A stretch of DNA of 64,000 nucleotides from Eledone cirrhosa (taxonomy: Eukaryota), in the NCBI GenBank assembly GCA_964016885.1, contig OZ024742.1, forward strand, positions 126,418,001-126,482,000. The letters are read 5' to 3'. Every line of letters starts with the position of its first letter. Positions within the stretch are counted from its first letter, which is position 1. Below the pieces are notes generated by a model that did no database searches, had not been told where the DNA came from, and worked only from the letters and a program-made list of their open reading frames with translations. A program made the position numbers and the translations under genes. Of this stretch, positions 15,238-61,900 are shown piece after piece.

Positions 15238-15680
15238 AAGCATTTAATGAAAATTATATACAATTATGTGTATCAATTAATATGGTAAAAACTGATTCCT
15301 AAAGAATATACAGCTGTTTTGGGCAGACAAGAAATGATGCCAATTACCATTATTGGTGGATTGGCAGCATTGGCAGAGTGTCAGACACTATACTTTGCAA
15401 CATAGTGTTATGGCCCTTTATGTTCTGAGTTCAAATCCTGCTGAGGTTAACTTTGCCTTTCATCCTTATGGGGTCGATAAAATGAAGTACTGGGGTAATT
15501 GCTGACATTGTGACATTAGATAACAGGTACCAGTAAGACACGGGACCCATCATCAGTATACAGTGTCTTACTAAATACACATAGCTCTTCCGGCATGCAT
15601 TCAATATATATATATATATAGGGGGATTCTTGATATATATTGGGATGTGACCACAGTTAAAAAAGTAGAGTGTAAACATA

Positions 15681-15866
15681 GTGGATTGGCAGTTTCGGTA
15701 GAGGGTCGGACGCCATGCTTTCCAGCATAGTTACGTCCCTTTACGATCCGAGTTCAAATCCCGCCGAGGTTGACTTTGCCTTTCATCCTTACGGGGGTCG
15801 ATAAAATAAAGTACCAGTAATGCACTGGGTAATTGCTGGCCTTGTGCCTAAAGTAGAAACAATTAT
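15681..15866 (+). mobile_element. tRNA-derived SINE family A (representative copy)
   Basis: A-box-like TGGCAGTTTCGGTAG and B-box GAGTTCAAATCCC, followed by ctttgcctttcatccttacggggtcgataaaataaagtaccag...ccttgtgcctaaagtagaaac. Other copies: + strand ~15356, 34790, 43407, 43682, 59370; - strand ~270, 2570, 8160, 8335, 8937, 12420, 47706, 47933, 54301, 54461, 54651, 60620. Confidence 0.85.
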
Positions 15867-16022
15867 AGAAATTACTTCTTCATTACTAGAACTATTTCAC
15901 ATGTGCAGTAAATCATCAGGAAAGTAAATCAGGAAATTCCTGATGATTTCTTATGAATGAAACAGTTCTAGTCCAGTAGAAATCATTTCTATAATAATAA
16001 CAATAACATATATGTATATATG

Positions 16023-16237: not shown

Positions 16238-16748
16238 CACATAAACAAAACCGTTATTGCTCCAGCCAGTTCATTCACCATCGATAACTACCTGAAATAT
16301 ACATACACATATATACACTATATATAGATGTATATGCAAACAAGCAAGTACATGATGCATGTACAAATATATGTGTATGTAATGGATATTAAATCTAGAT
16401 GATGAATGTATGCATGTATATATATTATATCATATATATATATATATATATATATATAACAAAGGAATTGTGGTAAGGAACCAGATGGACCATAACGCAC
16501 CAGAGTACTCAATACTTAGTCCAGAAATAGCTGTCGAAACGGCTTGAGCTCTGCCGTCGGGGTCATACTTTTTCCTATATATATATAAGTATGGGGCGCG
16601 CGCGCGTGCGTGCGTGCAAAATGAATATGTATGAATATATATTATATCATATATATATATATATATATATATCATATATATATTATATCATATATATATA
16701 TATATATATATAAGTATGGTGTGTGTGTAAAATGAATGTTAAATGCTG

Positions 16749-16782
<34 letters not shown>

Positions 16783-16976
16783 AATGAGTAGGACCCCGAC
16801 GGCTGAGCTCAAGCCGTTTCGACGGCTAATTCTGGACTCTACTACCCTAAGTATTGAGTACTTTGAGTACTTTGGTGCGTTATGGTCCATCTGGTTCCTT
16901 GCCACAACTCCTTCGTTATATATGTGTATATATATATATGTTCAGCATTTAACATTCATTTTACACACACACCATA

Positions 16977-17452: not shown

Positions 17453-17747
17453 AAATGAAGTGAGTAAAAGCTAAGGAATTCAGCTAAACAGTGAAAGTAG
17501 GTTAGAGAACAACTGTGTGTGTCTTCCAATTTCCAGTAAATTCCTTGGAACAGTTTCATTGGAGATCACAATCAATATCTTACCTTCTCCCCCCTCCTCC
17601 TCCCCACGATTGTTCTACATCCATCCCTCTCCCTCTTTCTCTCTCTCCCTCTCCTTCTCCTTCTCTCTATCTTGGTCTCTGTCTTGCAACCTTCTTATCT
17701 CAACTCTCACTAACTCATCTTACCATTTCTCCTCTCCTCTTTCTAAC

Positions 17748-18952
17748 ACTTCTTACAATCTCTCTAACTTCTTACAGTCTCTCTAACTTCTTACAGTCTC
17801 TCTAACTTCTTACAATCTCTCTACCTTCTTCCCATCAATCTCTCTCTAACTCTTCTTACAATCTCTAACTTCTTACCATCTCTCTCTAACTTCTTACCAT
17901 CTCTCTCTAACTTCTTACCATCTCTCTCTAACTTCTTACCATCTCTCTCTAACTTCTTACCATCTCTCTCTAACTTCTTACCATCTCTCTCTAACTTCTT
18001 ACCATCTCTCTCTAACTCTTCTTACCATCTCTCTCTAACTCTTCTTACAATCTCTCTCTAACTCTTCTTACAATCTCTCTCTAACTCTTCTTACAATCTC
18101 TCTCTAACTCTTCTTACAATCTCTCTAACTCTTCTTACAATCTCTCTACCTTCTTCCCATCAATCTCTCTCTAACTCTTCTTACAATCTCTAACTTCTTA
18201 CCATCTCTCTCTAACGCTTCTTACAATCTCTCTAGCTTCTTACAATCTCTCTCTCTAACTCTTCTTACAATCTCTAGCTTCTTACAATCTCTCTCTAACT
18301 CTTCTTACAATCTCTCTAACTTCTTCCCATCTCTCTCTCTCTAACTCTACTTACAATCTCTCTAACTTCTTCCCATCTCTCTCTCTCTTCTTACAATCTC
18401 TCTAGCTTCTTACAATCTCTCTAGCTTCTTACAATCTCTCTAGCTTCTTACAATCTCTCTAGCTTCTTACAATCTCTCTAGCTTCTTACAATCTCTCTAG
18501 CTTCTTACAATCTCTCTAGCTTCTTACAATCTCTCTAGCTTCTTACAATCTCTCTAGCTTCTTACAATCTCTCTAGCTTCTTACAATCTCTCTAGCTTCT
18601 TACAATCTCTCTAGCTTCTTACAATCTCTCTAGCTTCTTACAATCTCTCTAGCTTCTTACAATCTCTCTAGCTTCTTACAATCTCTCTAGCTTCTTACAA
18701 ACTCTCTCTCTCTAACACTTCTTACCATCTCTCTCTCTAACTCTTCTTACCATCTCTCTCTCTAACTCTTCTTACCATCTCTCTCTCTAACTCTTCTTAC
18801 CATCTCTCTCTCTAACTCTTCTTACCATCTCTCTCTCTAACTCTTCTTACCATCTCTCTCTCTAACTCTTCTTACCATCTCTCTCTCTCTCTAACTTCTT
18901 CCCATCTCTCTCTCTCTAACTCTTCTTACCATCTCTCTCTCTCTAACTCTTA
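17748..18952. repeat. ~19-25-bp minisatellite (CTCTCTARCTTCTTACMAT)
   Basis: Direct reading; homogeneous 19-bp ctctctagcttcttacaat run at ~18398-18700. Confidence 0.95.
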
Positions 18953-19126
18953 TTACCACCACCTTTCTCTCACTGTTCATCTCATCTCACAATATATCTC
19001 AACACTCCCTCTCCTCTGCTCTATCCCCTTTCACTATTTCTATCACTTTTCTTTGCCTCAATTTGCTCTAACTTTCTTTCACTCCTTCTCACACTCTTAT
19101 CCTCCTCTGCTCATTCATATTTCTCT

Positions 19127-22100
19127 CCCTATCTCTCTACATCTCCTGTGCTACATCTCTCATATTCCCTATCTCTCTACATCTCCCGTGCTACATCTCT
19201 CCCATTCCCTATCTCTCTACATCAATCTCTACATCTCTCCCATTCCCTATCTCTCTACATCAATCTCTACATCTACCATGCTACATCTCTCACATTCCCT
19301 ATCTCTCTACATCTCTCTACATCTACCATGCTACATCTCTCACATTCCCTATCTCTCTACATCTCTACATCTCCCATGCTACATCTCTCACATTCCCTAT
19401 CTCTCTACATCTCTCTATCTACCGTGCTACATCTCTCCCATTCCCTATCTCTCTACATCAATCTCTACATCTACCGTGCTATATCTCTCACATTCCTTAT
19501 CTCTACATCTCTCTACATCTACCATGCTACATCTCTCACATTCCCTATCTCTCTACATCTACCGTGCTACATCTCTCCCATTCCCTATCTCTCTACATCT
19601 ACCGTGCTACATCTCTCCCATTCCCTATCTCTCTACATCTCTCTACATCTCCCTACATCTCTCTACATCTACCGTGCTACATCTCTCCCATTCCCTATCT
19701 CTCTACATCAATCTCTACATCTACCATGCTACATCTCTCCCATTCCCTATCTCTCTACATCTACCATGCTACATCTCTCACATTCCCTATCTCTCTACAT
19801 CTCTCTACATCTACCGTGCTACATCTCTCCCATTCCCTATCTCTCTACATCAATCTCTACATCTACCGTGCTACATCTCTCCCATTCCCTATCTCTCTAC
19901 ATCAATCTCTACATCTACCGTGCTATATCTCTCACATTCCTTATCTCTACATCTACCATGCTACATCTCTCACATTCCCTATCTCTCTACATCTACCGTG
20001 CTACATCTCTCCCATTCCCTATCTCTCTACATCTCTCTACATCTACCGTGCTACATCTCTCCCATTCCCTATCTCTCTACATCTCTCTACATCTCTCTAC
20101 ATCTCTCTACATCTACCGTGCTACATCTCTCCCATTCCCTATCTCTCTACATCAATCTCTACATCTACTGTGCTACATCTCTCCCATTCCCTATCTCTCT
20201 ACATCTACCATGCTACATCTCTCACATTCCCTATCTCTCTACATCTCTCTACATCTACCGTGCTACATCTCTCCCATTCCCTATCTCTCTACATCTCTCT
20301 ACATCTACCGTGCTACATCTCTCCCATTCCCTATCTCTCTACATCAATCTCTACATCTACCATGCTACATCTCTCCCATTCCCCATCTCTCTACATCTCT
20401 CTACATCTACCGTGCTACATCTCTCCCATTCCCTATCTCTCTACATCAATCTCTACATCTACCGTGCTACATCTCTCCCATTCTCTATCTCTCTACATCT
20501 CTCTACATCTACCGTGCTACATCTCTCACATTCCCTATCTCTCTACATCAATCTCTACATCTACCATGCTACATCTCTCACATTCCCTATCTCTCTACAT
20601 CTACCGTGCTACATCTCTCACATTCCCTATCTCTCTACATCTACTGTGCTACATCTCTCACATTCCCCATCTCTCTACATCAATCTCTACATCTACCGTG
20701 CTACATCTCTCCCATTCCCTATCTCTCTACATCTACCGTGCTACATCTCTCACATTCCCTATCTCTCTACATCTCTCTACATCTACCGTGCTACATCTAC
20801 CATGCTATATCTCTCACATTCCCTATCTCTCTACATCTACCGTGCTACATCTCTCACATTCCCTATCTCTCTACATCTCTCTACATCAATCTCTACATCT
20901 ACCGTGCTATATCTCTCACATTCCCTATCTCTCTACATCTACCATGCTACATCTCTCACATTCCCTATCTCTCTACATCTACCATGCTACATCTCTCACA
21001 TTCCCTATCTCTCTACATCTCTCTACATCTACCATGCTACATCTCTCACATTCCCTATCTCTCTACATCTCTCTAACTCTACCATGCTACATCTCTCACA
21101 TTCCCTATCTCTCTACATCTACCATGCTACATCTTTCACATTCCCTATCTCTCTACATCTACCATGCTACACCTCTCACATTCCCTATCTCTCTACATCT
21201 ACCATGCTACATCTCTCACATTCCCTATCTCTCTACATCTCTCTACATCTACCATGCTACATCTCTCACATTCCCTATCTCTCTACATCTACCGTGCTAC
21301 ATCTCTCACATTCCCTATTTCTCTACATCTACCATGCTACATCTCTCACATTCCCTATCTCTCTACATCTCTCTACATCTACCGTGCTATATCTCTCACA
21401 TTCCCTATCTCTCTACATCTACCGTGCTACATCTCTCACATTCCCTATCTCTCTACATCTCTCTACATCAATCTCTACATCTACCATGCTACATCTCTCA
21501 CATTCCCTATTTCTCTACATCTACCATGCTACATCTCTGACATTCCCTATCTCTCTACATCTCTCTACATCAATCTCTACATCTACTGTGCTACATCTCT
21601 CACATTCCCTATCTCTCTACATCTACCATGCTACATCTCTCACATTCCCTATCTCTCTACATCTCTCTACATCAATCTCTACATCTACCGTGCTACATCT
21701 CCCACATTCCCTATCTCTCTACATCTCTCTACATCTACCATGCTACATCTCTCACATTCCCTATCTCTCTACATCTACCATGCTACATCTCTCACATTCC
21801 CTATCTCTCTACATCTACCATGCTACATCTCTCACATTCCCTATCTCTCTACATCTCTCTACATCTACCGTGCTACATCTCTCACATTCCCTATCTCTCT
21901 ACATCTCTCTACATCTACCGTGCTATATCTCTCACATTCCCTATCTCTCTACATCTACCATGCTACATCTCTCACATTCCCTATCTCTCTACATCTCTCT
22001 ACATCTACCGTGCTACATCTCTCACATTCCCTATCTCTCTACATCAATCTCTACATCTACCGTGCTACATCTCTCACATTCCCTATCTCTCTACATCTCT

Positions 22101-25100
22101 CACATTCCCTATCTCTCTACATCTCTCTACATCTACCGTGCTACATCTTTCACATTCCCTATCTCTCTACATCTACCATGCTACATCTCTCACATTCCCT
22201 ATCTCTCTACATCTACCATGCTACATCTCTCACATTCCCTATCTCTCTACATCAATCTCTACATCTACCGTGCTACATATCTCACATTCCCTATCTCTCT
22301 ACATCTACCGTGCTACATATCTCACATTCCCTATCTCTCTACATCAATCTCTACATCTACCGTGCTACATATCTCACATTCCCTATCTCTCTACATCTAC
22401 CGTGCTACATCTCTCCCATTCTCTATCTCTCTACATCTCTCTACATCTACCGTGCTACATCTCTCACATTCCCTATCTCTCTACATCAATCTCTACATCT
22501 ACCATGCTACATCTCTCACATTCCCTATCTCTCTACATCTACCGTGCTACATCTCTCACATTCCCTATCTCTCTACATCTACTGTGCTACATCTCTCACA
22601 TTCCCCATCTCTCTACATCAATCTCTACATCTACCGTGCTACATCTCTCCCATTCCCTATCTCTCTACATCTACCGTGCTACATCTCTCACATTCCCTAT
22701 CTCTCTACATCTACCGTGCTACATCTCTCACATTCCCTATCTCTCTACATCTCTCTACATCTACCGTGCTACATCTACCATGCTATATCTCTCACATTCC
22801 CTATCTCTCTACATGTCTCTACATCAATCTCTACATCTACCGTGCTATATCTCTCACATTCCCTATCTCTCTACATCTACCATGCTACATCTCTCACATT
22901 CCCTATCTCTCTACATCTACCATGCTACATCTCTCACATTCCCTATCTCTCTACATCTCTCTACATCTACCATGTTACATCTCTCACATTCCCTATCTCT
23001 CTACATCTCTCTACATCTACCATGCTACATCTCTCACATTCCCTATCTCTCTACATCTACCATGCTACATCTCTCACATTCCCTATCTCTCTACATCTAC
23101 CATGCTACACCTCTCACATTCCCTATCTCTCTACATCTACCATGCTACATCTCTCACATTCCCTATCTCTCTACATCTCTCTACATCTACCATGCTACAT
23201 CTCTCACATTCCCTATCTCTCTACATCTACCATGCTACATCTCTCACATTCCCTATCTCTCTACATCTCTCTACATCTACCGTGCTATATCTCTCACATT
23301 CCCTATCTCTCTACATCTACCGTGCTACATCTCTCACATTCCCTATTTCTCTACATCTACCATGCTACATCTCTCACATTCCCTATTTCTCTACATCTAC
23401 CATGCTACATCTCTCACATTCCCTATCTCTCTACATCTCTCTACATCAATCTCTACATCTACTGTGCTACATCTCTCACATTCCCTATCTCTCTACATCT
23501 ACCATGCTACATCTCTCACATTCCCTATCTCTCTACATCTCTCTACATCAATCTCTACATCTACCGTGCTACATCTCTCACATTCCCTATCTCTCTACAT
23601 CTCTCTACATCTACCATGCTACATCTCTCACATTCCCTATCTCTCTACATCTACCATGCTACATCTCTCACATTCCCTATCTCTCTACATCTCTCTACAT
23701 CTACCGTGCTACATCTACCATGCTATATCTCTCACATTCCCTATCTCTCTACATCTACCGTGCTACATCTCTCACATTCCCTATCTCTCTACATCTCTCT
23801 ACATCAATCTCTACATCTACCGTGCTATATCTCTCACATTCCCTATCTCTCTACATCTACCATGCTACATCTCTCACATTCCCTATCTCTCTACATCTAC
23901 CATGCTACATCTCTCACATTCCCTATCTCTCTACATCTCTACATCTACCATGCTACATCTCTCACATTCCCTATCTCTCTACATCTCTCTACATCTACCA
24001 TGCTACATCTCTCACATTCCCTATCTCTCTACATCTACCATGCTACATCTCTCACATTCCCTATCTCTCTACATCTACCATGCTACACCTCTCACATTCC
24101 CTATCTCTCTACATCTCTCACATTCCCTATCTCTCTACATCTCTCTACATCTACCATGCTACATCTCTCACATTCCCTATCTCTCTACATCTACCGTGCT
24201 ACATCTCTCACATTCCCTATTTCTCTACATCTACCATGCTACATCTCTCACATTCCCTATCTCTCTACATCTCTCTACATCTACCGTGCTATATCTCTCA
24301 CATTCCCTATCTCTCTACATCTACCGTGCTACATCTCTCACATTCCCTATCTCTCTACATCTCTCTACATCAATCTCTACATCTACCATGCTACATCTCT
24401 CACATTCCCTATTTCTCTACATCTACCATGCTACATCTCTCACATTCCCTATCTCTCTACATCTCTCTACATCAATCTCTACATCTACTGTGCTACATCT
24501 CTCACATTCCCTATCTCTCTACATCTACCATGCTACATCTCTCACATTCCCTATCTCTCTACATCTCTCTACATCAATCTCTACATCTACCGTGCTACAT
24601 CTCCCACATTCCCTATCTCTCTACATCTCTCTACATCTACCATGCTACATCTCTCACATTCCCTATCTCTCTACATCTCTCTACATCTACCATGCTACAT
24701 CTCTCACATTCCCTATCTCTCTACATCTACCATGCTACATCTCTCACATTCCCTATCTCTCTACATCTCTCTACATCTACCGTGCTACATCTCTCACATT
24801 CCCTATCTCTCTACATCTCTCTACATCTACCGTGCTATATCTCTCACATTCCCTATCTCTCTACATCTACCATGCTACATCTCTCACATTCCCTATCTCT
24901 CTACATCTCTCTACATCTACCGTGCTACATCTCTCACATTCCCTATCTCTCTACATCAATCTCTACATCTACCGTGCTACATCTCTCACATTCCCTATCT
25001 CTCTACATCTCTCACATTCCCTATCTCTCTACATCTCTCTACATCTACCGTGCTACATCTTTCACATTCCCTATCTCTCTACATCTACCATGCTACATCT

Positions 25101-28100
25101 CTCACATTCCCTATCTCTCTACATCTACCATGCTACATCTCTCACATTCCCTATCTCTCTACATCAATCTCTACATCTACCGTGCTACATATCTCACATT
25201 CCCTATCTCTCTACATCAATCTCTACATCTACCGTGCTACATATCTCACATTCCCTATCTCTCTACATCTACCGTGCTACATCTCTCCCATTCTCTATCT
25301 CTCTACATCTCTCTACATCTACCGTGCTACATCTCTCACATTCCCTATCTCTCTACATCAATCTCTACATCTACCATGCTACATCTCTCACATTCCCTAT
25401 CTCTCTACATCTACCGTGCTACATCTCTCACATTCCCTATCTCTCTACATCTACTGTGCTACATCTCTCACATTCCCCATCTCTCTACATCAATCTCTAC
25501 ATCTACCGTGCTACATCTCTCCCATTCCCTATCTCTCTACATCTACCGTGCTACATCTCTCACATTCCCTATCTCTCTACATCTCTCTACATCTACCGTG
25601 CTACATCTACCATGCTATATCTCTCACATTCCCTATCTCTCTACATGTCTCTACATCAATCTCTACATCTACCGTGCTATATCTCTCACATTCCCTATCT
25701 CTCTACATCTACCATGCTACATCTCTCACATTCCCTATCTCTCTACATCTACCATGCTACATCTCTCACATTCCCTATCTCTCTACATCTCTCTACATCT
25801 GCCATGCTACATCTCTCACATTCCCTATCTCTCTACATCTCTCTACATCTACCATGCTACATCTCTCACATTCCCTATCTCTCTACATCTACCATGCTAC
25901 ATCTCTCACATTCCCTATCTCTCTACATCTACCATGCTACACCTCTCACATTCCCTATCTCTCTACATCTACCATGCTACATCTCTCACATTCCCTATCT
26001 CTCTACATCTCTCTACATCTACCATGCTACATCTCTCACATTCCCTATCTCTCTACATCTACCATGCTACATCTCTCACATTCCCTATTTCTCTACATCT
26101 ACCATGCTACATCTCTCACATTCCCTATCTCTCTACATCTCTCTACATCTACCGTGCTATATCTCTCACATTCCCTATCTCTCTACATCTACCGTGCTAC
26201 ATCTCTCACATTCCCTATTTCTCTACATCTACCATGCTACATCTCTCACATTCCCTATCTCTCTACATCTACCATGCTACATCTCTCACATTCCCTATCT
26301 CTCTACATCTCTCTACATCAATCTCTACATCTACTGTGCTACATCTCTCACATTCCCTATCTCTCTACATCTCTCTACATCTACCATGCTACATCTCTCA
26401 CATTCCCTATCTCTCTACATCTACCGTGCTACATCTCTCACATTCCCTATTTCTCTACATCTACCATGCTACATCTCTCACATTCCCTATCTCTCTACAT
26501 CTCTCTACATCTACCGTGCTATATCTCTCACATTCCCTATCTCTCTACATCTACCGTGCTACATCTCTCACATTCCCTATCTCTCTACATCTCTCTACAT
26601 CAATCTCTACATCTACCATGCTACATCTCTCACATTCCCTATTTCTCTACATCTACCATGCTACATCTCTCACATTCCCTATCTCTCTACATCTCTCTAC
26701 ATCAATCTCTACATCTACTGTGCTACATCTCTCACATTCCCTATCTCTCTACATCTACCATGCTACATCTCTCACATTCCCTATCTCTCTACATCTCTCT
26801 ACATCAATCTCTACATCTACCGTGCTACATCTCCCACATTCCCTATCTCTCTACATCTCTCTACATCTACCATGCTACATCTCTCACATTCCCTATCTCT
26901 CTACATCTCTCTACATCTACCATGCTACATCTCTCACATTCCCTATCTCTCTACATCTACCATGCTACATCTCTCACATTCCCTATCTCTCTACATCTCT
27001 CTACATCTACCGTGCTACATCTCTCACATTCCCTATCTCTCTACATCTCTCTACATCTACCGTGCTATATCTCTCACATTCCCTATCTCTCTACATCTAC
27101 CATGCTACATCTCTCACATTCCCTATCTCTCTACATCTCTACATCTACCGTGCTACATCTCTCACATTCCCTATCTCTCTACATCAATCTCTACATCTAC
27201 CGTGCTACATCTCTCACATTCCCTATCTCTCTACATCTCTCACATTCCCTATCTCTCTACATCTCTCTACATCTACCGTGCTACATCTTTCACATTCCCT
27301 ATCTCTCTACATCTACCATGCTACATCTCTCACATTCCCTATCTCTCTACATCTACCATGCTACATCTCTCACATTCCCTATCTCTCTACATCAATCTCT
27401 ACATCTACCGTGCTACATATCTCACATTCCCTATCTCTCTACATCAATCTCTACATCTACCGTGCTACATATCTCACATTCCCTATCTCTCTACATCAAT
27501 CTCTACATCTACCGTGCTACATATCTCACATTCCCTATCTCTCTACATCTACCGTGCTACATCTCTCCCATTCTCTATCTCTCTACATCTCTCTACATCT
27601 ACCGTGCTACATCTCTCACATTCCCTATCTCTCTACATCAATCTCTACATCTACCATGCTACATCTCTCACATTCCCTATCTCTCTACATCTACCGTGCT
27701 ACATCTCTCACATTCCCTATCTCTCTACATCTACTGTGCTACATCTCTCACATTCCCCATCTCTCTACATCAATCTCTACATCTACCGTGCTACATCTCT
27801 CCCATTCCCTATCTCTCTACATCTACCGTGCTACATCTCTCACATTCCCTATCTCTCTACATCTCTCTACATCTACCGTGCTACATCTACCATGCTATAT
27901 CTCTCACATTCCCTATCTCTCTACATGTCTCTACATCAATCTCTACATCTACCGTGCTATATCTCTCACATTCCCTATCTCTCTACATCTACCATGCTAC
28001 ATCTCTCACATTACCTATCTCTCTACATCTACCATGCTACATCTCTCACATTCCCTATCTCTCTACATCTCTCTACATCTGCCATGCTACATCTCTCACA

Positions 28101-30838
28101 TTCCCTATCTCTCTACATCTCTCTACATCTACCATGCTACATCTCTCACATTCCCTATCTCTCTACATCTACCATGCTACATCTCTCACATTCCCTATCT
28201 CTCTACATCTACCATGCTACACCTCTCACATTCCCTATCTCTCTACATCTACCATGCTACATCTCTCACATTCCCTATCTCTCTACATCTCTCTACATCT
28301 ACCATGCTACATCTCTCACATTCCCTATCTCTCTACATCTACCATGCTACATCTCTCACATTCCCTATTTCTCTACATCTACCATGCTACATCTCTCACA
28401 TTCCCTATCTCTCTACATCTCTCTACATCTACCGTGCTATATCTCTCACATTCCCTATCTCTCTACATCTACCGTGCTACATCTCTCACATTCCCTATTT
28501 CTCTACATCTACCATGCTACATCTCTCACATTCCCTATCTCTCTACATCTACCATGCTACATCTCTCACATTCCCTATCTCTCTACATCTCTCTACATCA
28601 ATCTCTACATCTACTGTGCTACATCTCTCACATTCCCTATCTCTCTACATCTACCATGCTACATCTCTCACATTCCCTATCTCTCTACATCTCTCTACAT
28701 CAATCTCTACATCTACCGTGCTACATCTCTCACATTCCCTATCTCTCTACATCTCTCTACATCTACCATGCTACATCTCTCACATTCCCTATCTCTCTAC
28801 ATCTACCATGCTACATCTCTCACATTCCCTATCTCTCTACATCTCTCTACATCTACCATGCTACATCTCTCACATTCCCTATCTCTCTACATCTACCATG
28901 CTACATCTCTCATATTCCCTATCTCTCTACATCACTCTACATCTACCGTGCTACATCTCTCACATTCCCTATCTCTCTACATCTCTCTACATCTACCGTG
29001 CTATATCTCTCACATTCCCTATCTCTCTACATCTACCATGCTACATCTCTCACATTCCCTATCTCTCTACATCAATCTCTACATCTACCGTGCTACATCT
29101 CTCACATTCCCTATCTCTCTACATCTCTCACATTCCCTATCTCTCTACATCTCTCTACATCTACCGTGCTACATCTTTCACATTCCCTATCTCTCTACAT
29201 CTACCATGCTACATCTCTCACATTCCCTATCTCTCTACATCTACCATGCTACATCTCTCACATTCCCTATCTCTCTACATCTACCATGCTACATCTCTCA
29301 CATTCCCTATCTCTCTACATCTACCATGCTACATCTCTCACATTCCCTATCTCTCTACATCTACCATGCTACATCTCTCACATTCCCTATCTCTCTACAT
29401 CTCTCTACATCTACCGTGCTACATCTCTCACATTCCCTATCTCTCTACATCTCTCTACATCTCTCTACATCTACCATGTTACATCTCTCACATTCCCTAT
29501 CTCTCTACATCTCTCTACATCTACCATGCTACATCTCTCCCATTCCCTATCTCTCTACATCTCTCTACATCTACCGTGCTACATCTCTCCCATTCCCTAT
29601 CTCTCTACATCAATCTCTACATCTACCATGCTACATCTCTCACATTCCCTATCTCTCTACATCAATCTCTACATCTACCGTGCTACATCTCTCACATTCC
29701 CTATCTCTCTACATCTCTCTACATCTATCATGCTACATCTCTCACATTCCCTATCTCTCTACATCTCTCTACATCTCTCACATTCCCTATCTCTCTACAT
29801 CTCTCTACATCTACCATGCTACATCTCTCACATTCCCTATCTCTCTACATCTCTCTACATCTACCATGCTACATCTCTCACATTCCCTATCTCTCTACAT
29901 CTCTCTACATCTCTCTACATCTACCATGCTACATCTCTCACATTCCCTATCTCTCTACATCTCTCTACATCTATCATGCTACATCTCTCACATTCCCTAT
30001 CTCTCTACATCTCTCTACATCTCTCACATTCCCTATCTCTCTACATCTCTCTACATCTACCATGCTACATCTCTCACATTCCCTATCTCTCTACATCTCT
30101 CTACATCTACCATGCTACATCTCTCACATTCCCTATCTCTCTACATCTCTCTACATCTCTCACATTCCCTATCTCTCTACATCTCTCTACATCTACCATG
30201 CTACATCTCTCACATTCCCTATCTCTCTACATCTCTCTACATCTCTCACATTCCCTATCTCTCTACATCTCTCTACATCTACCATGCTACATCTCTCACA
30301 TTCCCTATCTCTCTACATCTCTCTACATCTACCGTGCTACATCTCTCACATTCCCTATCTCTCTACATCTCTCTACATCTACCGTGCTACATCTCTCACA
30401 TTCCCTATCTCTCTACATCTCTCTACATCTACCGTGCTACATCTCTCACATTCCCTATCTCTCTACATCTCTCTACATCTACCATGCTACATCTCTCACA
30501 TTCCCTATCTCTCTACATCTCTCTACATCTACCATGCTACATCTCTCACATTCCCTATCTCTCTACATCTACCATGCTACATCTCTCACATTCCCTATCT
30601 CTCTACATCTACCGTGCTACATCTCTCACATTCCCTATCTCTCTACATCTACCATGCTACATCTCTCACATTCCCTATCTCTCTACATCTACCATGCTAC
30701 ATCTCTCACATTCCCTATCTCTCTACATCTCCCGTGCTACATCTCTCACATTCCCTATCTCTCTACATCTACCATGCTACATCTCTCACATTCCCTATCT
30801 CTCTACATCTCTCTACATCTACCATGCTACATCTCTCT
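19127..30838. repeat. 11.7-kb intronic satellite with a ~40-bp core monomer built from 10-bp subunits
   Basis: Core CTACATCTACCRTGCTACATCTCTCACATTCCCTATCTCT, with optional CTACATCTCT or CTACATCAATCT insertions. The + strand almost lacks stop codons, which explains the multi-kb ORFs in all three frames. Confidence 0.98.
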
Positions 30839-31492
30839 ATACCTGTCTCATTCACTATCTCTACACTTACCTCACTACACTTACCTCACTACACTTACAC
30901 CTATCAATCAATCCCAATAATATTCATTCTCTCCATTCTTATACTTTCTTTCCTTTTCTAACACTACACTTTCTCTTTTCTTCCTCCATTCCCATGTACA
31001 CCCTCTCCTTCCCACCACTTCTTTTGTATAGTCCTTCTCCCTCTTTTATTATTTCATTTCCATCCCTCTCTTTCTCCCCCTCTCTCTCAATCATTTCCAT
31101 CCCTCTCTTTCACCCCCTCCTCTCTCTATCATTTCTATCTCTCTCTTACCCCCCGCCCCCCCTCTTCTTTCTCTTTCATTTCATCTTTTTCTCCCTTACA
31201 TGTATTTTTTCCTTCAATATTTTGAAATGAATATCTTCAATACAACACACTTTCTAAATATCACATGCATACACACAGACACAAAACGTGTGCATATAAA
31301 CACAAATGCACATACAAGCATAGATGCACACATACACGCACACAAACATGTATACACCTCTAATTGAAATTGATATTTAATCAATCCAGCATATGAATAA
31401 AGTTACTACACTTTACATTTTTTGAGTGGAGTTCTTTATTATTTTTAAAATTATACACCACACACATTATAATATATACATATATATATATA

Positions 31493-31910
31493 AATTCAAA
31501 ATATTAACAAAATAGATATTCTTGTGATCAATTATATTTTATTATACATATTTCAGAGGTACTGAGTTAAGTTCAACAGTACGTCCTCATCAGATAAAAT
31601 AAGATGATGCATGACATACCCTGACATAGATGATTAAGATTCAGTCACTACCATGACTGAATCTTAACCATCTACTATGTCAGGGTATGTCATGCATCAT
31701 CTTATTTTATCTGATGAGGACGTACTGTTGAACTTAACTCAGTACCTCTGAAATATGTATAATAAAATATAATTGATCACAAGAATATCTATTTTGTTAA
31801 TATTTTGAATTAATATTAATAACTCTGGAAAACCTTTAACTGTTGAGTGCTTCCAATCTATTGTAAAACTCATTCTTTGATGTATTCATTGAACCTTGTT
31901 TAACTTTTAA
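31493..31910 (+). mobile_element. Fold-back element with hammerhead cores (Penelope-like terminus)
   Basis: Arms 31493-31647 and 31654-31811 differ by one mismatch and one 3-nt indel. A ~100-bp tail contains GTTGAGTGC. (TA)n on both sides. Confidence 0.8.
31703..31769 (+). ncRNA. Type-I hammerhead ribozyme motif (mirror copy on the - strand at 31535-31601)
   Basis: tattttat-CTGATGA-gga c gtactg..cagtac c tct-GAAA-tatgt-ATA^ataaaata: 8-bp stem I, extended stem II, short quasi-palindromic stem III; predicted cleavage after 31761. Confidence 0.75.
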
Positions 31911-32587
31911 ATATATATATATATATATATTTTTTTTCTTCTCTTTTTCCACACATATAATACAGTACACCTTCTATACTACTCTACTCCATACCTTAAT
32001 ATGACCATCTCTATATTACATTCCACCACAAAATAAAATACCTCTTCTATTCGAGGTATATGAACACAAACACACGAAGGACCTCAAATTCAAATTGACA
32101 TCTTGGAGTTATTTCCCTTTGTTATAATGTTTTTGTAAACATGCAATTTTAGCAAGCTTTACTTTTAACGGTATCTTATAAACTCATATAAACACCTGAA
32201 GAAATGTCACTAATTTGATGCCTCTTGTATTCTGGAGGTTTGGTCAAATTTGGGCCTTGAAACCTTGGGTAGCGCTTGTGTTCTGTCTGAACATAAATAT
32301 ATCATAAATATGTAAAGTGGCCATGTAGGTGACATGACAAAAAGCACCCAGTCTGCACTGTAAAGTGGTCGTGTAGGAGACACAATAAAAGGGCTCCCAG
32401 TCCACACTGTAAATGTGGTTGCCATTCGGAAGGGCATCCAGCCGTGGAAAACCTGCCAGAAACAGTTCTATACGAGCAAGACACGGTCACCCAACCAATC
32501 TTGGCTCAAGTAGGACAAACTTGTCCAACCCATGCTAACATGGAAGATGGATGTCAAACGATGATGATGATATATATATATATATAA

Positions 32588-34789: not shown

Positions 34790-34976
34790 AGTGAATCGGC
34801 AGTATCGGTAGAGGGTTGGACGCCATGTTTTCCAGCATAGTTCCGTCCCTTTACGATCTGAGTTCAAATCCCGCCGAGGTTAACTTTGCCTTTCATCCTT
34901 ACGGGGTCGATAAAATAAAGTACCAGTAATGTACTGGGTTATTGCTGGCCTTGTGCCTAAAGTAGAAACAATTATT
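34790..34976 (+). mobile_element. SINE family A copy
   Basis: Near-identical to 15681-15866. Confidence 0.85.
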
Positions 34977-35199
34977 GTTATTAAATTCTTGTTATTCTTA
35001 CTGTTATTGTTTCTACCACTGGTATTTCATTAGTGTAGTAATAATAGTAGTAATTGTTGTTTCTACCACTGGTATTTCATTACTGTTGTTAATATTATTA
35101 TAGGTATTGTGTTTTTTGTCATTTCAAATTTTTTTTATTTCTTATCTATTTACTTTGCATAATTCAATACATTTCATACAATTGACTCTGTGTGGAGTG

Positions 35200-40238: not shown

Positions 40239-42240
40239 CTGAAAAGAAACAAGTGTTAGATGTTAGATACAAAGAGAGAGAGAGAAAGAGATGAGTATAT
40301 AAACGAATGAAAAAGGAACTCAATACTGAGGAACAAGCATCAAAACAATCAGGAATTTATGTTCTCAAATTGTTTATACAGACAAAATACACACACACAT
40401 TATATATATATATATATATTAAAATAACAGATTAAAGTTTAAGGGTGAAAGCAGCGATTCTTTGCTTAAACTTTAATCTGTTATTTTAATAAATATTTGC
40501 TCTACGGTTCTTATATATTTGATATATATTTATCCTTATCGAGCCCTCTTTGGATTTTAGTCTTCAAATTTATTATTACTATATATATATATATATATAT
40601 GTATGTAAAAGGTAAACAGAAATAGCATAATCAGTACAGTATAATGGAAGGAATATATTAGGTTAATGGTTGAAATAGCAGGAAGAGGGTCTAACGTTTC
40701 GGATGCTCGTCCTTTATCAGAAGAAAGAAGGAGACACTATATATATATATATATATTACACAATATATAGCAAGGATAACACACTAGAGAGAGAGAGTGT
40801 GTGTGTGCTATTAATAAACAGGGAAACCACCAGTGTATGGAATCTAAACTACAGAAGGTGAGGTAGACATAATAATTAAAAATATAAATCAAAATGAGTA
40901 TACCCACCTCTATAACTATATATCACACACGTACAAATCCCAAGAGATTTGTTTTGCCAAAAAATTAGTGACCGAAATGGAAATACCTATGGTTCATCAG
41001 CGTGTGTTAAGTAAATACATTCCAGACAGCTCTAAGAAGATTTAAGATAACCGTTTTGCAACATGTGGTAGAGAGAGGTGAATGCATGCAAAGGACAGTG
41101 AACCAGTGGTCTTTGTGGAACGGGCGGCTAGAAATGGCAGCCCAAAACCACTCAAAGAAAAGTGCTTAACCAATCTGTTACAAGGAGCAAAATGTCAAAA
41201 TAAATTAACGGAGCCATAGACTCGTGTTAGTCCCTGTAAATTATGTGCTCAAAGGAAAAGGAATCCTGGGCTCTTCAAATCCTTATTTATTAATAGCACA
41301 CACTCTCTCTCTCTCTCTCTAGTGTGTTATCCTTTCTACATATTGTATTTTGAAGAGGCCAGGATTCCTTTTCCCTTGAGCACATAATTTACAGGGACTA
41401 ACGCGAGTCTATGACTCCATTAATTTATTTTGATATATATATACATATATATATATACATCTGTAGGGAGTATGTGGAAGAGTAGGAATGTATTTCCTTG
41501 CCAGAAATTCCCAAATTAAAATGCTATGTGAGCAGCATTTAAATCATTATAGTGGTGCAGAACTAAATCATTATAGTGGTGCAGTACCCAATCCCCTGCA
41601 ATGTCCTTTCAAACTCACTCAACCTGTTTTTGAAGTCATTCAAAGACATCTTTGTAGAAGGTGTGATTAATTTCCTGACCTACAGATAAAAACTCTTTGT
41701 GAACAAAACCATGGTTGTTGAAAACATTATAATTCTTTGGATGAGGAGAATTTTCCATGTCACATCTCACTTTGCTGTTTTGTCTCAAGATCATACTTGA
41801 TCATAGTTGAACACTCATGATTCTAAAAATCTAAAATCTGATTTGAGCCCAAGGCTCATCAGGCCAGTGCTTATCCTGGTTTCCGTGGTGTTAAGTGACT
41901 GAAAGTTCAAGACTACTCCATGGACAGGATACCTGTCCATCATGGGGTTAAACTCCCAGCTACAGCTGGTACTCATTTTCAGATGAGTATATTTTGATAA
42001 ATTGTTCAATATTTCCCTGCATCTTAAACATAACAGAGCTTATAAACACGTCTGTACATAAAAAGTTATAACTCGTGACCGACTCAATTCATCATATTGA
42101 AACAAGTATATATGGATAGCCAATGTCATAATCAACACATGTATATACATCAACAGGATGCTGCGTTACCATGTTGTACATAGGAAAATCAGTACCTTTA
42201 CTTTGGGGCTAAACCTCGTGTGCGTGTGTATATATATTTA

Positions 42241-43310: not shown

Positions 43311-43406
43311 TGCTGTTGCTGTTTAGTCCATATTGTATTTTTTCAGATGGTGTATCTAGGGATATAATATTCAATGCATTATTTTAAAGATGGGGGAGGG
43401 GGGGGG

Positions 43407-43893
43407 GAATTGGCAGTATCGGTAGAGTGTCAGACACCATGTTTTGCAGCATAGAGTTATAGCCCTTTGCGTTCTGAGTTCAAATCCCTCTGAGGCTAAC
43501 TTTGCCTTTCATCCTTACGGGGTTGATAAAATAAAGCACCAGTTATGCACTGGGGTAATTGCTGGCCTTGTGCCAAAAGAAGAAACAATTATTTTAAAGA
43601 TGCTGAAGTGTATTTTGAGCAAGATTTGGTTGCTATTTCTAGCAGGTCAAGTGAGACTATCATTGATTGCTACTCCAAGGGTGGTGGATTGGCAGAATTG
43701 GTAGAGCATTGGACAATATGCTTTATTGCATTTAGTTTCAACCATTTATGCTCTGATTCAAATCCTGCTGAGGTTAGCTTTATCTTTCATCCTTTGAGGG
43801 TTGATAAAATAAAGTATCAGTAATGCACTAGGGTCAATTTATTCAACTTTCCCTTTCCATTCAAATTGCTGGCCTTATGCCAAATATAGAAAC
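43407..43893 (+). mobile_element. Two SINE family A copies
   Basis: Same head, central and tail motifs at 43407-43591 and 43682-43893. Confidence 0.8.
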
Positions 43894-47705: not shown

Positions 47706-48120
47706 TAAATAATTTTTTCTACTTTAGGGACAAGGCCAGCAATTTGAAGAGGAGGGGAAAGTCGATTAAATCGATCCCAGTGCGTTACTGGTACTTTATT
47801 TTATCAACCCTGTAAGGATGAAAGGCAAAGCTAACCTCGGCAGGATTTGATTCAGAACGTAAAGGGCCATAACTATGCTGCAAAGCATGGCGTCTGACGC
47901 TCTACCGATATTGCCAATCAACCTCTTTTCTAAATAATTGTTTCTACTTTTGGCACAAGGCCAGCAATTACCCAGTGCATTACTGGTACTTTATTTTATC
48001 GACCCCGTAAGGATGAAAGGCAAAGTTAACCTCGGCAGGATTTGATCTCAGAATGGCAGGGGCCGTAACTAATGCGTCAAAGCATGGTGTCCGACCCTCT
48101 ACCGATACTGCCAATCCACC
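47706..48120 (-). mobile_element. Two tandem SINE family A copies
   Basis: Reverse complements of the family A motifs. Confidence 0.85.
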
Positions 48121-48545
48121 ACCCCTCTTTTCTAAATAATGCTCCCTAATGTGAATCAAACCTAGGGCAATAAACATACATTATCAATAATAAAACCTCC
48201 CGATGACTATCAGAGGTTGAACCAATCGAAATGTAGTTTAAATATAAATATTGGAAATATATGCTGTAAAGATGATGGGTTAACGGTCTGTGTCTTAATA
48301 GCATGTGGTAGTATTCACATATTTGGGGTCATATAGTCCTACATATCTTTTCCCACGACTGTTCCTAACTGTTACATCTGACTGCAGCTATTAATCTTTG
48401 CTTTCCATCAAAGTATGTATGTTGTCATTCAATCTCATTCCCCCAAACGTCCGTCACTATGTATCTAAGGTCATGTACGAGATGCCAAGACAGTGTGTGT
48501 ATGTATGTACACATACATACAGACACACACATACATCTCTCTCTC

Positions 48546-50499: not shown

Positions 50500-53345
50500 G
50501 TAAACGATATTGCGTGTCATCCCTTGAGGAGTGTAAGCAAAATGTCCATTCCTGCTCCCTACGCGGGAACAGGCAACATAAAGTTGGCCATGGGGGAGAA
50601 GCATGGCTCCCCCAAATGGATGCCCGCCACCGACAATGTTTGCCCTTGTGACTTGTTAATGGACATGGCAAAACATGGTCTCACCGGAAATCGAACGGGA
50701 TATCTGACGCCGAGGGGAAAGGTTCATCCTTGGAATAAAAACATTCTCCCCTCTCCCGCACCCCGTTACAATGGTGGCCTTAATCAAGTGGGGCGTCAGT
50801 GACTTGACGACCATGCGAGTACCGTTACACTGCTTTGGTGGACGCAAGTTCCTTATTAGCATAATGGGACAGCCAACTCTAAGCTTAAAAATGCGAGGTG
50901 GGAGCCCTGGGGGCTCAAGGGAATTTAATAACTCAACCGAATAATTAACGATATCGTCGGAGTCTGACGTCCGGTCAATAGATTTGAAGATGTGTTCTTT
51001 ACCGGGAATTTTCTCAATCAGCTGCTCGTTAATAAAATTAACCATGGTATTTTTCGGAGAGCAAGGATGGCTCTTTCGCTGAGCCATTCGAGGTTTTTAA
51101 AGTTAGATGAGACATTAGGAAAAACTGCTTCCCAAAGGTCAGAAGGGCTGCTCACAATGTTGCACAGGGAGTGGATTGCTATGTCGCCCTTGTCATGCGC
51201 AGGGACCTTGCCCTCACCAAGTGCTAAAATATTCTGAGCAAATGCTGCAGACATGTCACCATGCAAATGAGCACGCATATTTGTGCTCAGGTACAAACTC
51301 TTCACATGGAGCCACAACATGGACGACTTAAGACAGGCACGTACGTACTTCATCAGCTCTTGTCCCTTTGGGGATGACAGGCAGCGTTTGCCGAAAATCC
51401 CGATAGCAGAAGGGTTACGCCACCCATAGGAGACGTAGAATCCCCAATGTCTTTCAGGGTACTGTCCAATGCCTCAAGGGCACCCTTGTGCATTCATCCC
51501 AAACAATGAGGCAACATTTTTTGAGAACCAGAGCTTCGTGTGAACTCTTGCTGATATTGCATGTTGGTGTCTTAGTTTTTACTAAATTCAAAGGGAGTTT
51601 AAATGTTGAATGTGCTGTCCTGCCTCCCGGCAGCAAAGTAGCAGCGATCCCGGACGATGCAACGGCCAACGCAATTTTTTCTCTCCTGAAGAATCTTAGC
51701 GAGAATCAATTTCGTTACATAAGTTTTTCCGGTACCCCCAGGAGCATCGAGAAAGTAAATACCCCCAGTCTGATTTTGAACTGCGTCAATGATAGTTAAA
51801 TAGGCCAACCTTTGGTCCGACAGGAGTTTGGGCTCATTTTCCTCTAAGTATTGGGAAAGAGATTCGATGTCATATGCTGTTTCCCGCAACACATCCGGGG
51901 CCAACGTGTTAGCTTCCTCTCTGACGGTTGACGGCAAGCCATACGTCGCCAACTCACTCCCATCCATGTCGAGGAGGGCGTCCTCGATATCAATGAGTGC
52001 TCTGTTGTAGATAATGTCCCGGTAACCAACTTCCACTGAAGTATACTGCAGATGAGCCAGGCGCAGGAAGTCCTCAGACATGAAGTCTCTGTACTTGACC
52101 CATAAAGATTTGGGATCGCCCAATTCACACTTTTGAAGCAAAATAGCAAAGAGTTCCCGTAGACCTTTACTTGATTTCAACAAAGCACACTTTCCTAAAG
52201 TGGAATCCCATTGCGAATCAACTAAAAGACCACGCTTAAAGCAGGCTTCCCGGTACGTATCACATATTTCTCCATCAACAGTTTTGATGTCCTGAAAACT
52301 TTGTGAGCCTACAACTTTATGCAGAAGAAGGCGGAGATGAAAGCACTCATGCTGACTTGGGGGTACAGTGTAAACCCTTCCAAGACAGCTGTCAAATTTT
52401 ACACCAGGATGTTTTTCAGCAGCCTGACCTGACTTTCGACCATATAAAGTAGGATGGAACCTGGGAGTACACAATTGTTTGCGCAAATGTATCGAACTGG
52501 CAAAGTTTGAAGAAACCCGTCAGAGTGGTCTCTTTCGGATCGGCGGCCAACTTGGCGGCGGTTTGGTCCGTAAAGTAAACCCTTTGCCCATTTTCCAAAT
52601 GTACCTCAAGCTGTACGATAGCGAGGTGACGTTGGTGTAGGGGTAAACCAAATAGGTGCCAAAAAGCTTCATTGCTACTGATGTACGGCCCCGCCAAGTA
52701 TTGTGACCTCGTCCCTGCTATTTTCAGCTTGAAATGCGAACATTGCGGCATCAGAGCCCTTATTTACATATTTGCATATTTTATCGACTTGACGGAGTTG
52801 CAAAACTCAACGTTGATGTGGGCATTGAACATCTTCAAGAGAAGCGGGCAGTAAGGGACCACCCATCTATTGTCGACTTGACCTCCCGTTACTGTTGTGG
52901 TGAAGCCACCGTTCTCGGGCCGTCTCCCCTTGTACAGGGGGTACCCGTCGCCACCAGTCTGAGTCTGGTCAACAAATTTCTGGGGGTATCCCTTACTGCA
53001 CGACCTCCGCTTTCAGATACGTGTGATGCTCATTAGGACCTGACGCACACGGACCATGAATCATGTTACCTTTGACGATGTCATGTAATTCCTTGTCAGT
53101 TGCTGGGTTAGGGATTTCAGCCGAAATGAAGCTGTCTATGGCATTTGAATTGATTTTATCAGCTAACCAAATCAAAATGTGAGCATGTGGCAGCCCTCAT
53201 TTTTGCCATTCGACGGTGAACATGTTATATTTTACAGCTCCAAATACCTGACCTTTTTGATTAAAGCCATGAGTTTAGCCAGTTTCAGTCTGAACACTCT
53301 GGCAATGAGGTCATGTCTGTTCGAATAATTTTGCCCAGGAAAAAG
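50500..53345 (-). pseudogene. Helitron RepHel (HUH replicase + PIF1-type helicase) pseudogene
   Basis: HUH motif VEWQK*GLPHAHILIWL (~53215-53165, Arg codon now TGA) and AHINVEFCNSVKSIKY/CKYVNKGSD (frameshifted). Helicase motifs FLDAPGGTGKT, AVASSGIAATLLPGGRTAHS, IVWDEC, GDFRQTLPVIP, LSTNMR, PIMLIRNL..QCNGTR, FAMSINKSQGQT, HGQLYVACSRV are spread over several frames. Confidence 0.93.
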
Positions 53346-53897
53346 TTCACGGGTTACATTCCGATTCATATGTCTATAGCATTAATCTGTTATATGAAGT
53401 GTTATTTTGCGGGTTGTTATTTGCAATAAGCCGATTGAAAATGCTCCAGGTAAGCCGTATGTCAATACGGAACGCTCGACTGCAGTGTTCTCATATAGGG
53501 AGTGAAGAGCGACAGAGAGAGTAAAGCAGTTAAATTATAGAGAGGGGGAATATACGGAACGCTCCATTTGATCATATACATTGTTTCTCTCTCTGCAGTG
53601 TTGTCATATAGGGAGTAAGAGCGACAGAGAGTTTGTTGTTTTATAAATTCATCTGTTGCTTTTGAATATGTTATTTGATGTAAAATGTAAGTGTAAAGTG
53701 TAACGTTGAGAGAGCAGTATGTATTTAGTGTTATCGGCTTTTTAAATTTTGATATTTGATGTATGAGTGTCGTTATAACTGGGTTGTTGTATAAAATGAT
53801 GTGTTGCTTAGGTTTCAAAGTTTGTGTCGCGTTCCTTCAAAAGAAATTTGCCGTTGTTCTAAATTGTAATGGTGATAGAGTAGTAGACGGAGGTAGT

Positions 53898-54300: not shown

Positions 54301-54837
54301 TTCTGATTAATTTTGAGGGATGTTTAAGTCAATTAAATCAAATCCAGTGTGTTACTGGTACTTTACTTTATCGACCCCGTAGTGATGAGAGCTAAAGCTA
54401 ACCCATAGCGATATTTGGACTCGGAACGTAAAGGGACGTAGCAACATGCCATATGTTTATAGATAATTGTTTCTACTTTTGGCACAAGGCCAGCAATTTG
54501 AAGAGATGGGGGGAAATCGATTAAATCGATCCCAATTATGTAACTGGTACATTATTTTATCGACTCCGTAAGGATGAATGGCAAATGTAACTTCGGTGGG
54601 ATTTGACCTCGGAACACAAAGGGACGTAATTATCTGGCATATATGTTTATAAATAATTGTTTCTACTTTTGGCACATGGCCAGCAATTACCCAGTGCATT
54701 ACTGGTACTTTATTTTATTGACCCCGGAAGGATGAAAGGCAAAGTTAATCTCGGCGGGATTTGAACTCAGATCATACAAGGAGGTAACTCTATGCTTCAA
54801 AACATGGCATCCGACCCTCTACCGATACTGCCAATCC
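54301..54837 (-). mobile_element. Three tandem SINE family A copies next to the Helitron 5' end
   Basis: ctggtacttta...gacccc...gatga recurs three times. Confidence 0.8.
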
Positions 54838-55391: not shown

Positions 55392-56439
55392 CCCGGGTTC
55401 AATCGGGGGTAACCACAGTAAGGTACTCATGATGATTTCCTTCGAATGAAACAGTTCTAGTCCTGTAAAAGTCATTTCTATAATAAAATGAATATACGTA
55501 TATTCTTCTAACATCATTGAATATCTTTTTTGACATTGGTCGCCTCTCGATTTACACTGGGATCTCTCTCTCACACACACATATACACACGTTGTTGGTC
55601 TTCCGTGGCTTGCTCTTTTGAATTGCAGCTACAACTCATTTTGTCAGCTAAGTGGATTAGAGCAACATGAAGTGTCTTGCTCAAGGATATAATGCATTGC
55701 CAAGAATCGACCTCCTGTCATTGCACTCGTGAACTTAACATGTACACAAGCGGTGCTTGAACTTTTGAAATGCTGAGAGTATGAGTTTCATAGAAAATGT
55801 ATGAAAACGGATGTAGTTGGTTACTATAAATAACTTTGAAAATCGGGTAAAACCTCTAATAGACGAAAAAAGACGAAAAAAGACGAAAAAAGACGATTAC
55901 AACCACCTGGTCGACAATGCTGGTGCCTATGTAAGATTTTAAAACTAAACTTCTACCATTATACTGGTCAAAATATAATTTGTTTTATGAGAATCGACTA
56001 ATAATTAATAAAGTTATTAAAATTTTCAACAGGAAGTTTCTATCCAGCCACTATGTATATATGGCTGCTGGAAACTTCTTTTGGCAGAGACGTTGGAGCG
56101 GAGGACAAAATACCTGACGGTATTTGTTCCAGTTCTTTAGCTTATGAGATCAAATCCCGTTGTAAGTTATTTTGGTGGTAAACTTCATCCATGGTCCGGT
56201 TTATCACCAACATCTGGTCCTTTTGTGATTTAAGTGGAGACTATTCTGTTAAAGCATTCGGACCAGGTTTCCAAACTTGTGGGTACCATCATCCTTCCGC
56301 ACCTTTAGAAACGGAAGCCCCGATAAGAGTCATAGGTACTGCTCTTCCCTCTCTGAGTAAAAAATTAAAAGAAAACCGACTTCCTCCAATTGAGCCAGTT
56401 TTTGGTTTTGAGCTATAAACGTTTTCCTTCACACCTCCC

Positions 56440-59680: not shown

Positions 59681-60123
59681 TACGATATTAAACAATGGAA
59701 ACTACATTTATAAAACCATATTTATTTCATTATATATATTTCAGGGATATCATATTAAAAATATGGTATGCCCTCTTCAGACAAAATACAATATATATAA
59801 ACAGTTTTATAAATAAATTTGACATACCTTAAAATTTTACAACTTCCATTTAAAAAGTTTTTAACAACTTTTTAAATGGAAGTTGTAAAATTTTAAGGTA
59901 TGTCAAATTTATTTATAAAACTGTTTATATATTGTATTTTGTCTGAAGAGGGCATACCATATTTTTAATATGATATTCCTGAAATATATATAATGAAATA
60001 AATATGGTTTTATAAATGTAGTTTCCATTGTTTAATATCGTAAAATACTCCAAAACTTGTTGAGTGCTTTTATATCAGTTATAAAATATTTACTCGTAAC
60101 CCAACAATTTTAAATAAAACTTT

Positions 60124-60126: not shown

Positions 60127-60163
<37 letters not shown>

Positions 60164-61785: not shown

Positions 61786-61900
61786 CACACACACACACAC
61801 ACACATATTTATATTAGAAAGTAAGTCCATATAATCATTTGATAAAATATATACAGTATTTCTTCTCCCAATCAGCATAATCAACCACATAAAAAAAATC

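Follow-up and report, generated by a model that had tools for sequence, protein, structure and literature searches.

Penelope-like elements (PLEs) typically come with an inverted, 5′-truncated copy and a tail on one side only, the tail being given in the papers' text as 30–40 bp long (PMC8557442). In the parts of the literature consulted, this tail is bounded by two start sites of reverse transcription, both strands of the target are cut and extended (PMC11167929), and head-to-head junctions with palindromes are attributed to self-priming (PMC3846280). Minimal hammerhead ribozymes of metazoan PLEs occur as dual copies on opposite strands, 100–700 bp apart; they are inactive when monomeric and weakly active when dimeric (PMC4209133), and the hammerhead of Anolis needs the element's own protein (PMC11167929). 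Members of the Hydra clade, one of them from octopus, use (TA)n as target (Craig 2021 supplement, PMC8557442), and in Penelope-13_HM an inverted 5′ copy places a hammerhead on both strands. The same source describes (TA)n as a target also of Naiads, which are without canonical hammerheads, and a bias toward microsatellites also for Neptune. Recently active Penelope families have been reported from O. vulgaris (30 families; PMC13282606).

Here, we analysed a near-perfect hairpin in an intron of an M6-like gene, within a 64,000-base stretch of octopus DNA (hereafter, the window). We read it as a copy of an abundant octopus repeat, most likely a 5′-truncated, head-to-head PLE fold-back and probably a member of the Hydra clade. 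Its hammerhead is expected to stay zipped into the duplex, leaving M6 uncut; we put the probability of this reading as a whole at about 0.82. Derivation from a PLE is well supported, and placement in the Hydra clade, made by resemblance, appears somewhat better than an even bet, with Neptune as the alternative clade. The original prediction had anticipated the capture of the ribozyme, which our models bear out, and had missed the retroelement insertion.

The left arm (31493–31647, minus strand; 155 nt) repeats the element's 3′ end in inverted form and without a tail, and the right arm (31654–31811, plus strand; 158 nt) is that 3′ end in its family state. The two meet at a fold-back junction (31645–31656), a natural 3-bp mini inverted repeat around a 6-nt loop. 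In agreement with the first description, the arms differ by one mismatch (31633/31668) and one 3-nt indel, both within 25 bp of the tip, with 0 differences over the outer 134 bp. The mismatch reads as a G·U pair on the minus strand and the RNA is wholly paired save for a 3-nt bulge, resulting in a fold z-score of −42 (equally stable shuffles, 0/100). The hairpin had been drawn as extending to 31910; its last stretch, 31812–31909 on the plus strand, is instead a one-sided 98-nt tail present at the right end only. This is longer than the published 30–40 bp, and tails of the Hydra type may run to ~90–100 nt. The flanking target sequence is (TA)n-rich on the left (31463–31492) and (TA)n on the right (31910–31930), and both element ends sit in tracts in which a target-site duplication would go unseen. 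The 'young' age first ascribed to the hairpin would follow from the identity of its arms alone.

Each arm carries a type I minimal hammerhead: one at 31535–31601 on the minus strand, i.e. in the sense of the M6 pre-mRNA, with a predicted cut after 31543, and an identical one at 31703–31769 on the plus strand, antisense in the pre-mRNA, with a predicted cut after 31761. Both point outwards, and the ribozyme lies in the terminal repeat of the element, in the element's own sense. The numbering and core motifs used are general knowledge and agree with PMC4209133. A descriptor search found the expected core in each arm, starting at 31593 (−) and 31711 (+) and accompanied by an 8-bp stem I and an AUA triplet. 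In the minus-strand copy, the core occupies 31593–31587 and the GAAA 31554–31551, and stem II comprises 9 pairs with a G·U closing pair and one C/C mismatch. The descriptor returned four motifs in the 64-kb window (the hairpin pair and a pair at 59.7–60.0 kb), as compared to a mean of 0.04 in 100 shuffles. The hammerhead is intact, as had been claimed, with respect to its core letters, but not with respect to helix III, an 8-nt self-complementary stretch with a monomer pairing probability of 0, nor to stem II, which in 3/3 distinct rows is closed by G·U instead of the canonical G10.1–C11.1. Both a G·U closing pair and a dimer-type helix III occur in published PLE ribozymes (PMC4209133; PMC8557442 supplement), the former in Penelope-13_HM and 17_HM (PMC8557442) and in Lottia rows of the PMC4209133 supplement; the literature searched yielded no cleavage rate for a G10.1·U11.1 pair. 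Rfam gave no match in the window at the gathering score. The 13 matches at E ≤ 10, among which the hammerhead family was absent, were to microRNA- and snoRNA-type models far under their cut-offs, which fit any long hairpin. By eye, no convincing start or end of an open reading frame (ORF) lies within an arm.

In fold models, the isolated 67-nt ribozyme formed stem II with a probability of 0.88–0.99 and stem I with 0.25–0.38, and in a free 160-nt arm the probability of stem I was 0.0 at 37 °C, suggesting that even when free the arm would be a poor ribozyme. A double-hammerhead dimer folded at −21.6 kcal/mol, 2.7 kcal/mol above the best cofold (−24.3 kcal/mol), which would make self-cleavage of a dimer energetically feasible. 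The ribozyme likely needs a same-sense partner and, given its conservation in the family, serves the life cycle of the element itself, likely as a dimer.

To place the hairpin among its relatives, reads of four sequencing runs (X1, X4, X5 and X14) were aligned to 31250–32150 at 85% likeness; X4 contributed only 7 contigs at low depth, and the unique flank was covered in X1 alone. There, summed contig depth was 1.6 × 10^5 to 5 × 10^5 over most element bins and ~3.5 on the unique flank, figures that give no copy number but assign the hairpin to a very abundant repeat family. Scans of other collections (two of metagenome contigs, one of viral contigs) gave 0 matches to this family. Immediately before 31645, loose ends formed one and the same consensus in 4/4 runs (agreement 0.83–1.0; 17, 4 and 1 supporting contigs, and 177 reads in X14). 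Other copies therefore extend further upstream, and the hairpin copy is 5′-truncated at about 31645; its fold-back joint does not occur in the 15 read joints listed (12 more were recorded). The loop and three letters on each side of it are ordinary family sequence. At the opposite end, 345 molecules of a depth of 607 in X14 stop at 31811, 177 loose ends at that position agree only to 0.36, as expected of diverse flanks, and 5 contigs of X1 pass from 31811 into (TA)n. The family hence has two 3′ ends, a short one at ~31811 and a long one at 31909, and the left arm terminates at the mirror site of the short end.

Wherever it was checked, the right arm shows the family state: X5 record 18 equals 31653–31729 with 0 differences, and at the left arm's 31633 the family letter accounts for 259.5 of a depth of 276.3 in X1, the left arm's own letter being derived. 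Among the 40 variants and 12 indels listed, those within the arms affect loop II or positions beyond the ribozyme, leaving its stems and core untouched (a further 107 variants and 4 indels were recorded). In some contigs, moreover, the sequence jumps backwards from 31618 to 31540 (X1, depth 138; X5, depth 29), suggesting that a subfamily carries ribozyme units of ~81 nt in tandem, possibly as a mini-retrozyme.

The locus combines several features of PLEs, namely the inverted 5′-truncated copy, the one-sided 3′ tail, the type I hammerhead and a dispersed repeat with a common upstream continuation (4/4 runs). Insertion into (TA)n occurs together with a hammerhead, as in the Hydra clade. Resemblance to Hydra-clade PLEs, as far as they are described in PMC8557442 and its supplement, extends to the (TA)n target, the placement of a type I hammerhead close to the 3′ end, its U before GAAA (18/26 rows of the Craig supplement table by our own count) and its self-complementary helix III, and to an inverted 5′-truncated copy that brings the hammerhead onto both strands. 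The distances from stem I to the 3′ end fall into the same two ranges: across 24 families of the supplement they are 25–45 nt in 10, 80–150 nt in 11, and 58, 65 and 350 in the remaining three (Penelope-18_HMa, whose row is a 5′ copy, was excluded), and in the two elements of the window they are 42/140 and 42/127 nt to the short and long ends. In contrast to these PLEs, the hairpin has a stem II that is longer and keeps a C/C mismatch conserved, and a tail of ~90–100 nt, and no ORF was linked to its family; the clade itself is defined by reverse transcriptase (RT) phylogeny, DKT and RWK motifs and an EN domain without CCHH. Among 300 of the 488 filtered ORFs of the window, none encodes RT or GIY-YIG and only M6 and Helitron pieces were recognized; a copy lacking its 5′ part would hardly be expected to retain such an ORF. 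The Helitron (50659–53381, minus strand) is broken: its PIF1 helicase and Helitron N-terminal parts are spread over several frames. Neither the tail motif nor the ribozyme had a match in the Craig 2021 consensus file. Four short sequence terms gave no relevant match to a published octopus Naiad or Hydra consensus, in a search that line breaks may mask, and the published Hydra-1_Obim ribozyme differs in sequence from that of the hairpin.

With the metazoan PLE hammerheads of PMC4209133, the hairpin shares the dimer-type helix III, the long helix II and the occurrence in pairs on opposite strands at a spacing of 100–700 bp, yet its stem I is 8 bp of A–U pairs, as compared to 4–5 bp in theirs; octopus has 0 occurrences in the supplementary file searched. 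The inverted pLTRs of Adineta vaga Penelope (PMC3846280) likewise combine a one-sided tail with a palindromic junction, whereas the present insertion consists solely of two inverted ends.

A second element of the same build lies 28 kb away, at 59681–60127 (arms 59681–59859 and 59866–60042, tail to ~60127, (TA)n flanks). It is homologous to the hairpin (alignment score 78; 0/500 shuffles as high), and the two tails are weakly homologous as well (5/500 shuffles as high). Compared with the ribozyme of the hairpin, its own has changed at 4 pairs of stem II in a compensatory manner and shows 2 wobble changes in stem I; the compensatory signal in stem II was reached by 6/500 shuffles and comes from only 3 distinct rows, with the G·U closing pair kept. 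Upstream of the ribozyme, both elements have conserved a splice-donor-like motif (31685 and ~59898); an intron can start within the terminal repeats of PLEs. A third fold-back with a tail (62852–63212) repeats the build with a U3–A8 hammerhead core but is unrelated in sequence to the first (314/500 shuffles as high); its right copy has a G at the cut site, and its outer flanks (62779–62854 and 63216–63291) are inverted copies, 89% alike. The centres of the three fold-backs measure 6, 6 and 1–3 nt, and together the three make up 980 of 64,000 bases (1.5%), in one window that was chosen for containing one of them.

Further repeats accompany these elements in the window. A complex tandem/inverted unit at 61211–61789 holds divergent hammerhead cores at 61408 (−) and 61632 (+), which by eye look like Hydra-clade ribozymes. 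Older, small hammerhead-like motifs at 15862–15995, 55427–55503 and 56891–56948 (one divergent pair and two solo copies) fit the Hydra pattern by eye, with a U before GAAA and a palindromic helix III. Two more inverted repeats (16436–16939 and 41192–41436), whose arms enclose microsatellite centres of 181 and 69 nt, show no clear ribozyme core. Finally, a repeat at 15680–15874, 34790–34983, 43396–43601, 47927–48141 and 54643–54837, which we take to be a tRNA-derived SINE, is present in both orientations, and its copies can pair in the pre-mRNA.

How might such an insertion arise? We propose that the element's endonuclease would nick the (TA)n tract, and that reverse transcription would start at the tailed long 3′ end (31909) and halt early, at ~31645. 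Using the natural 3-bp inverted repeat, the 3′ end of the new strand may then snap back and copy itself up to the tail-less short end (the mirror of 31811), before being attached to the opposite side of the target. The snap-back DNA hairpin at the tip is marginal by itself (−0.7 kcal/mol). Centres of 6, 6 and 1–3 nt favour snap-back over the joining of two independently truncated strands, although twin priming with microhomology joining is a possible route to a similar product. In contrast to the antisense-template proposal made for Adineta vaga (PMC3846280), the reads put the fold-back on the 3-bp repeat, which would again favour snap-back.

Among the alternatives, the one that survives best, at long odds nonetheless, holds the locus to be a palindromic non-autonomous unit, MITE- or retrozyme-like, that moves as a whole hairpin with the arms as its terminal repeats. 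Long near-perfect arms, TA flanks and high abundance would all fit a MITE, and heavy editing of palindromic MITEs has been described in Xenopus (PMC5625713). There, the palindromic Harbinger repeats resemble our locus in being self-contained, short-loop hairpins of 200–330 nt in transcripts, but they are DNA transposons with a palindromic consensus and are hyper-edited, editing of the present hairpin being hypothetical (PMC5625713). At our locus, however, the tail is one-sided, family reads run past the tip with other sequence in 4/4 runs, X1 depth is roughly ten times lower in the bin that covers the left half of the tip, and the compensatory changes keep ribozyme stems that a DNA transposon would not need. 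For a retrozyme-like unit speaks the joint from 31618 to 31540 with its hint of tandem ribozyme units in a subfamily. Non-LTR retrozymes are, like the hairpin, non-coding, PLE-derived and equipped with a type I hammerhead, but the units described are head-to-tail tandems with two same-sense ribozymes (10.64898/2026.07.22.740005), whereas this locus is head-to-head and leaves neither ribozyme free.

Less probable still is an assembly artefact in which long reads formed a fold-back chimera. No contig of the four runs, and no read, spans the palindrome; contigs of this kind collapse palindromes, so that the gap is no proof. A chimera would hardly place both of its ends on family-defined ends in (TA)n with a tail on one side, nor account for three short-loop fold-backs in one window that share a build and differ in sequence. 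Moreover, about 17 of a depth of 276 in X1 bears the left arm's own letter at 31633.

The remaining two explanations concern the host gene and are very improbable. The gene was identified by a weak Pfam match leading to protein P0002, a Myelin_PLP member (PF01275) whose cluster is named Octopus M6-a-like protein, and five minus-strand exons with AG/GT borders were mapped in the window. The hairpin lies in a 24.9-kb intron (15192–40078, minus strand) between the exons at 40238–40079 and 15191–15056, 8.2 kb and 16.3 kb away from them. Using five isoforms, no exon upstream of 40238 was found in the window; the region above it is therefore probably intron, too. More than half of the intron that holds the hairpin is a 13-kb purine/pyrimidine-skewed satellite of 10–50-nt units (~17600–31200), which stops 300 bases short of the hairpin. 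With the gene on the minus strand, the minus-strand hammerhead is part of the M6 pre-mRNA and the antisense arm is transcribed first, as had been predicted from the letters.

The pairing and editing figures that follow come from nearest-neighbour models in which inosine is crudely treated as wholly non-pairing. During simulated nascent folding, the newly made arm paired with its mirror at 7/7 lengths (mean probability 0.93–0.99) and the probability of stem II was 0 at all of them; at 37 °C, forcing the ribozyme fold would cost 99 kcal/mol, and at 18 °C the cost would rise to 116 kcal/mol. This is in line with the predicted capture of the ribozyme in the duplex. The suggestion that editing might release it fared worse. 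With the six core and cut-site adenosines spared (12 draws per level), the mean penalty fell from 90 kcal/mol at 10% editing to 66 at 30% and 47 at 50%, the lowest value at 50% being 32 kcal/mol. Even with every A of the antisense arm edited, 20 kcal/mol would remain. The core, too, would be hit: all six of those adenosines survive in 1.6% of molecules at 50% editing.

These figures weigh heavily against a switch in which ADAR unwinds the duplex and the hammerhead then cuts M6 pre-mRNA at 31543, thereby tuning neural M6 output. Such a switch could draw on the pre-mRNA strand carrying the core letters, stem I and an AUA site, on the stem II and partial stem I of the lone ribozyme, and on the hyper-editing of octopus, the strongest of 21 species, as editing unwinds long duplexes (PMC5625713). 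It would nonetheless face a penalty of 47–99 kcal/mol over all six editing settings and of 20 in the extreme one, a helix III unformed in the monomer, the absence of stem I in the 160-nt arm, and the monomer inactivity (PMC4209133) and protein dependence (PMC11167929) of the related ribozymes; the sole other sense copy of the same kind in the transcript is hairpin-locked as well. Equally remote is selective retention of a PLE stub whose dsRNA or donor-like motif affects M6 splicing or editing, since to the near-perfect intronic dsRNA in a neural gene and the donor-like motif in the left arm's sense strand (mirror of 31685) must be opposed an arm identity consistent with recent insertion, the distance to either exon and the lack of any sign that the site is conserved, its unique flank being covered by X1 alone.

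By these models, the hammerhead probably has no effect on the M6 gene, and its likely fate would be that of a passive intronic dsRNA of ~155 bp, a likely ADAR substrate that is spliced out with the intron. Editing of the ubiquitous type is described for repeats and introns of squid (PMC9068888). Nor is the hairpin special to M6, because the lock holds on either strand; the family is also very abundant, and further head-to-head hammerhead pairs lie in the window. As a single locus it matters little, being a known insertion product whose editing-gated switch fails on energetics. The kind is likewise known already, the locus being, on the favoured reading, an ordinary PLE fold-back stub whose dimer-type hammerhead is self-locked.

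More general is the tentative idea, which we consider rather doubtful, that Hydra-like Penelope fold-back stubs are a principal source of the long near-perfect dsRNA behind octopus hyper-editing, the fold-back acting as a safety catch. Ribozyme-bearing insertions could then build up in introns whichever way they point, whereas sense copies standing alone would be purged. Octopus ranks highest in hyper-editing and in near-perfect dsRNA (4.4 × 10^−3 of loci; Porath et al., PMC5625713). In that paper's repeat analysis, octopus was omitted and lizard Penelope was massively edited. Retrozymes have been reported to be depleted from Xenopus introns (10.64898/2026.07.22.740005). The text available for 10.1101/2020.01.19.911685 names no octopus repeat, and the open literature searched yielded no description of the octopus family or of a link between PLE fold-backs and octopus editing. 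An inversion point on a 3-bp repeat and two 3′ ends ~100 nt apart bear on how PLEs form their inverted ends and tails, and an abundant intronic family of 150–180-bp hairpins offers a testable candidate for the repeat behind octopus hyper-editing.
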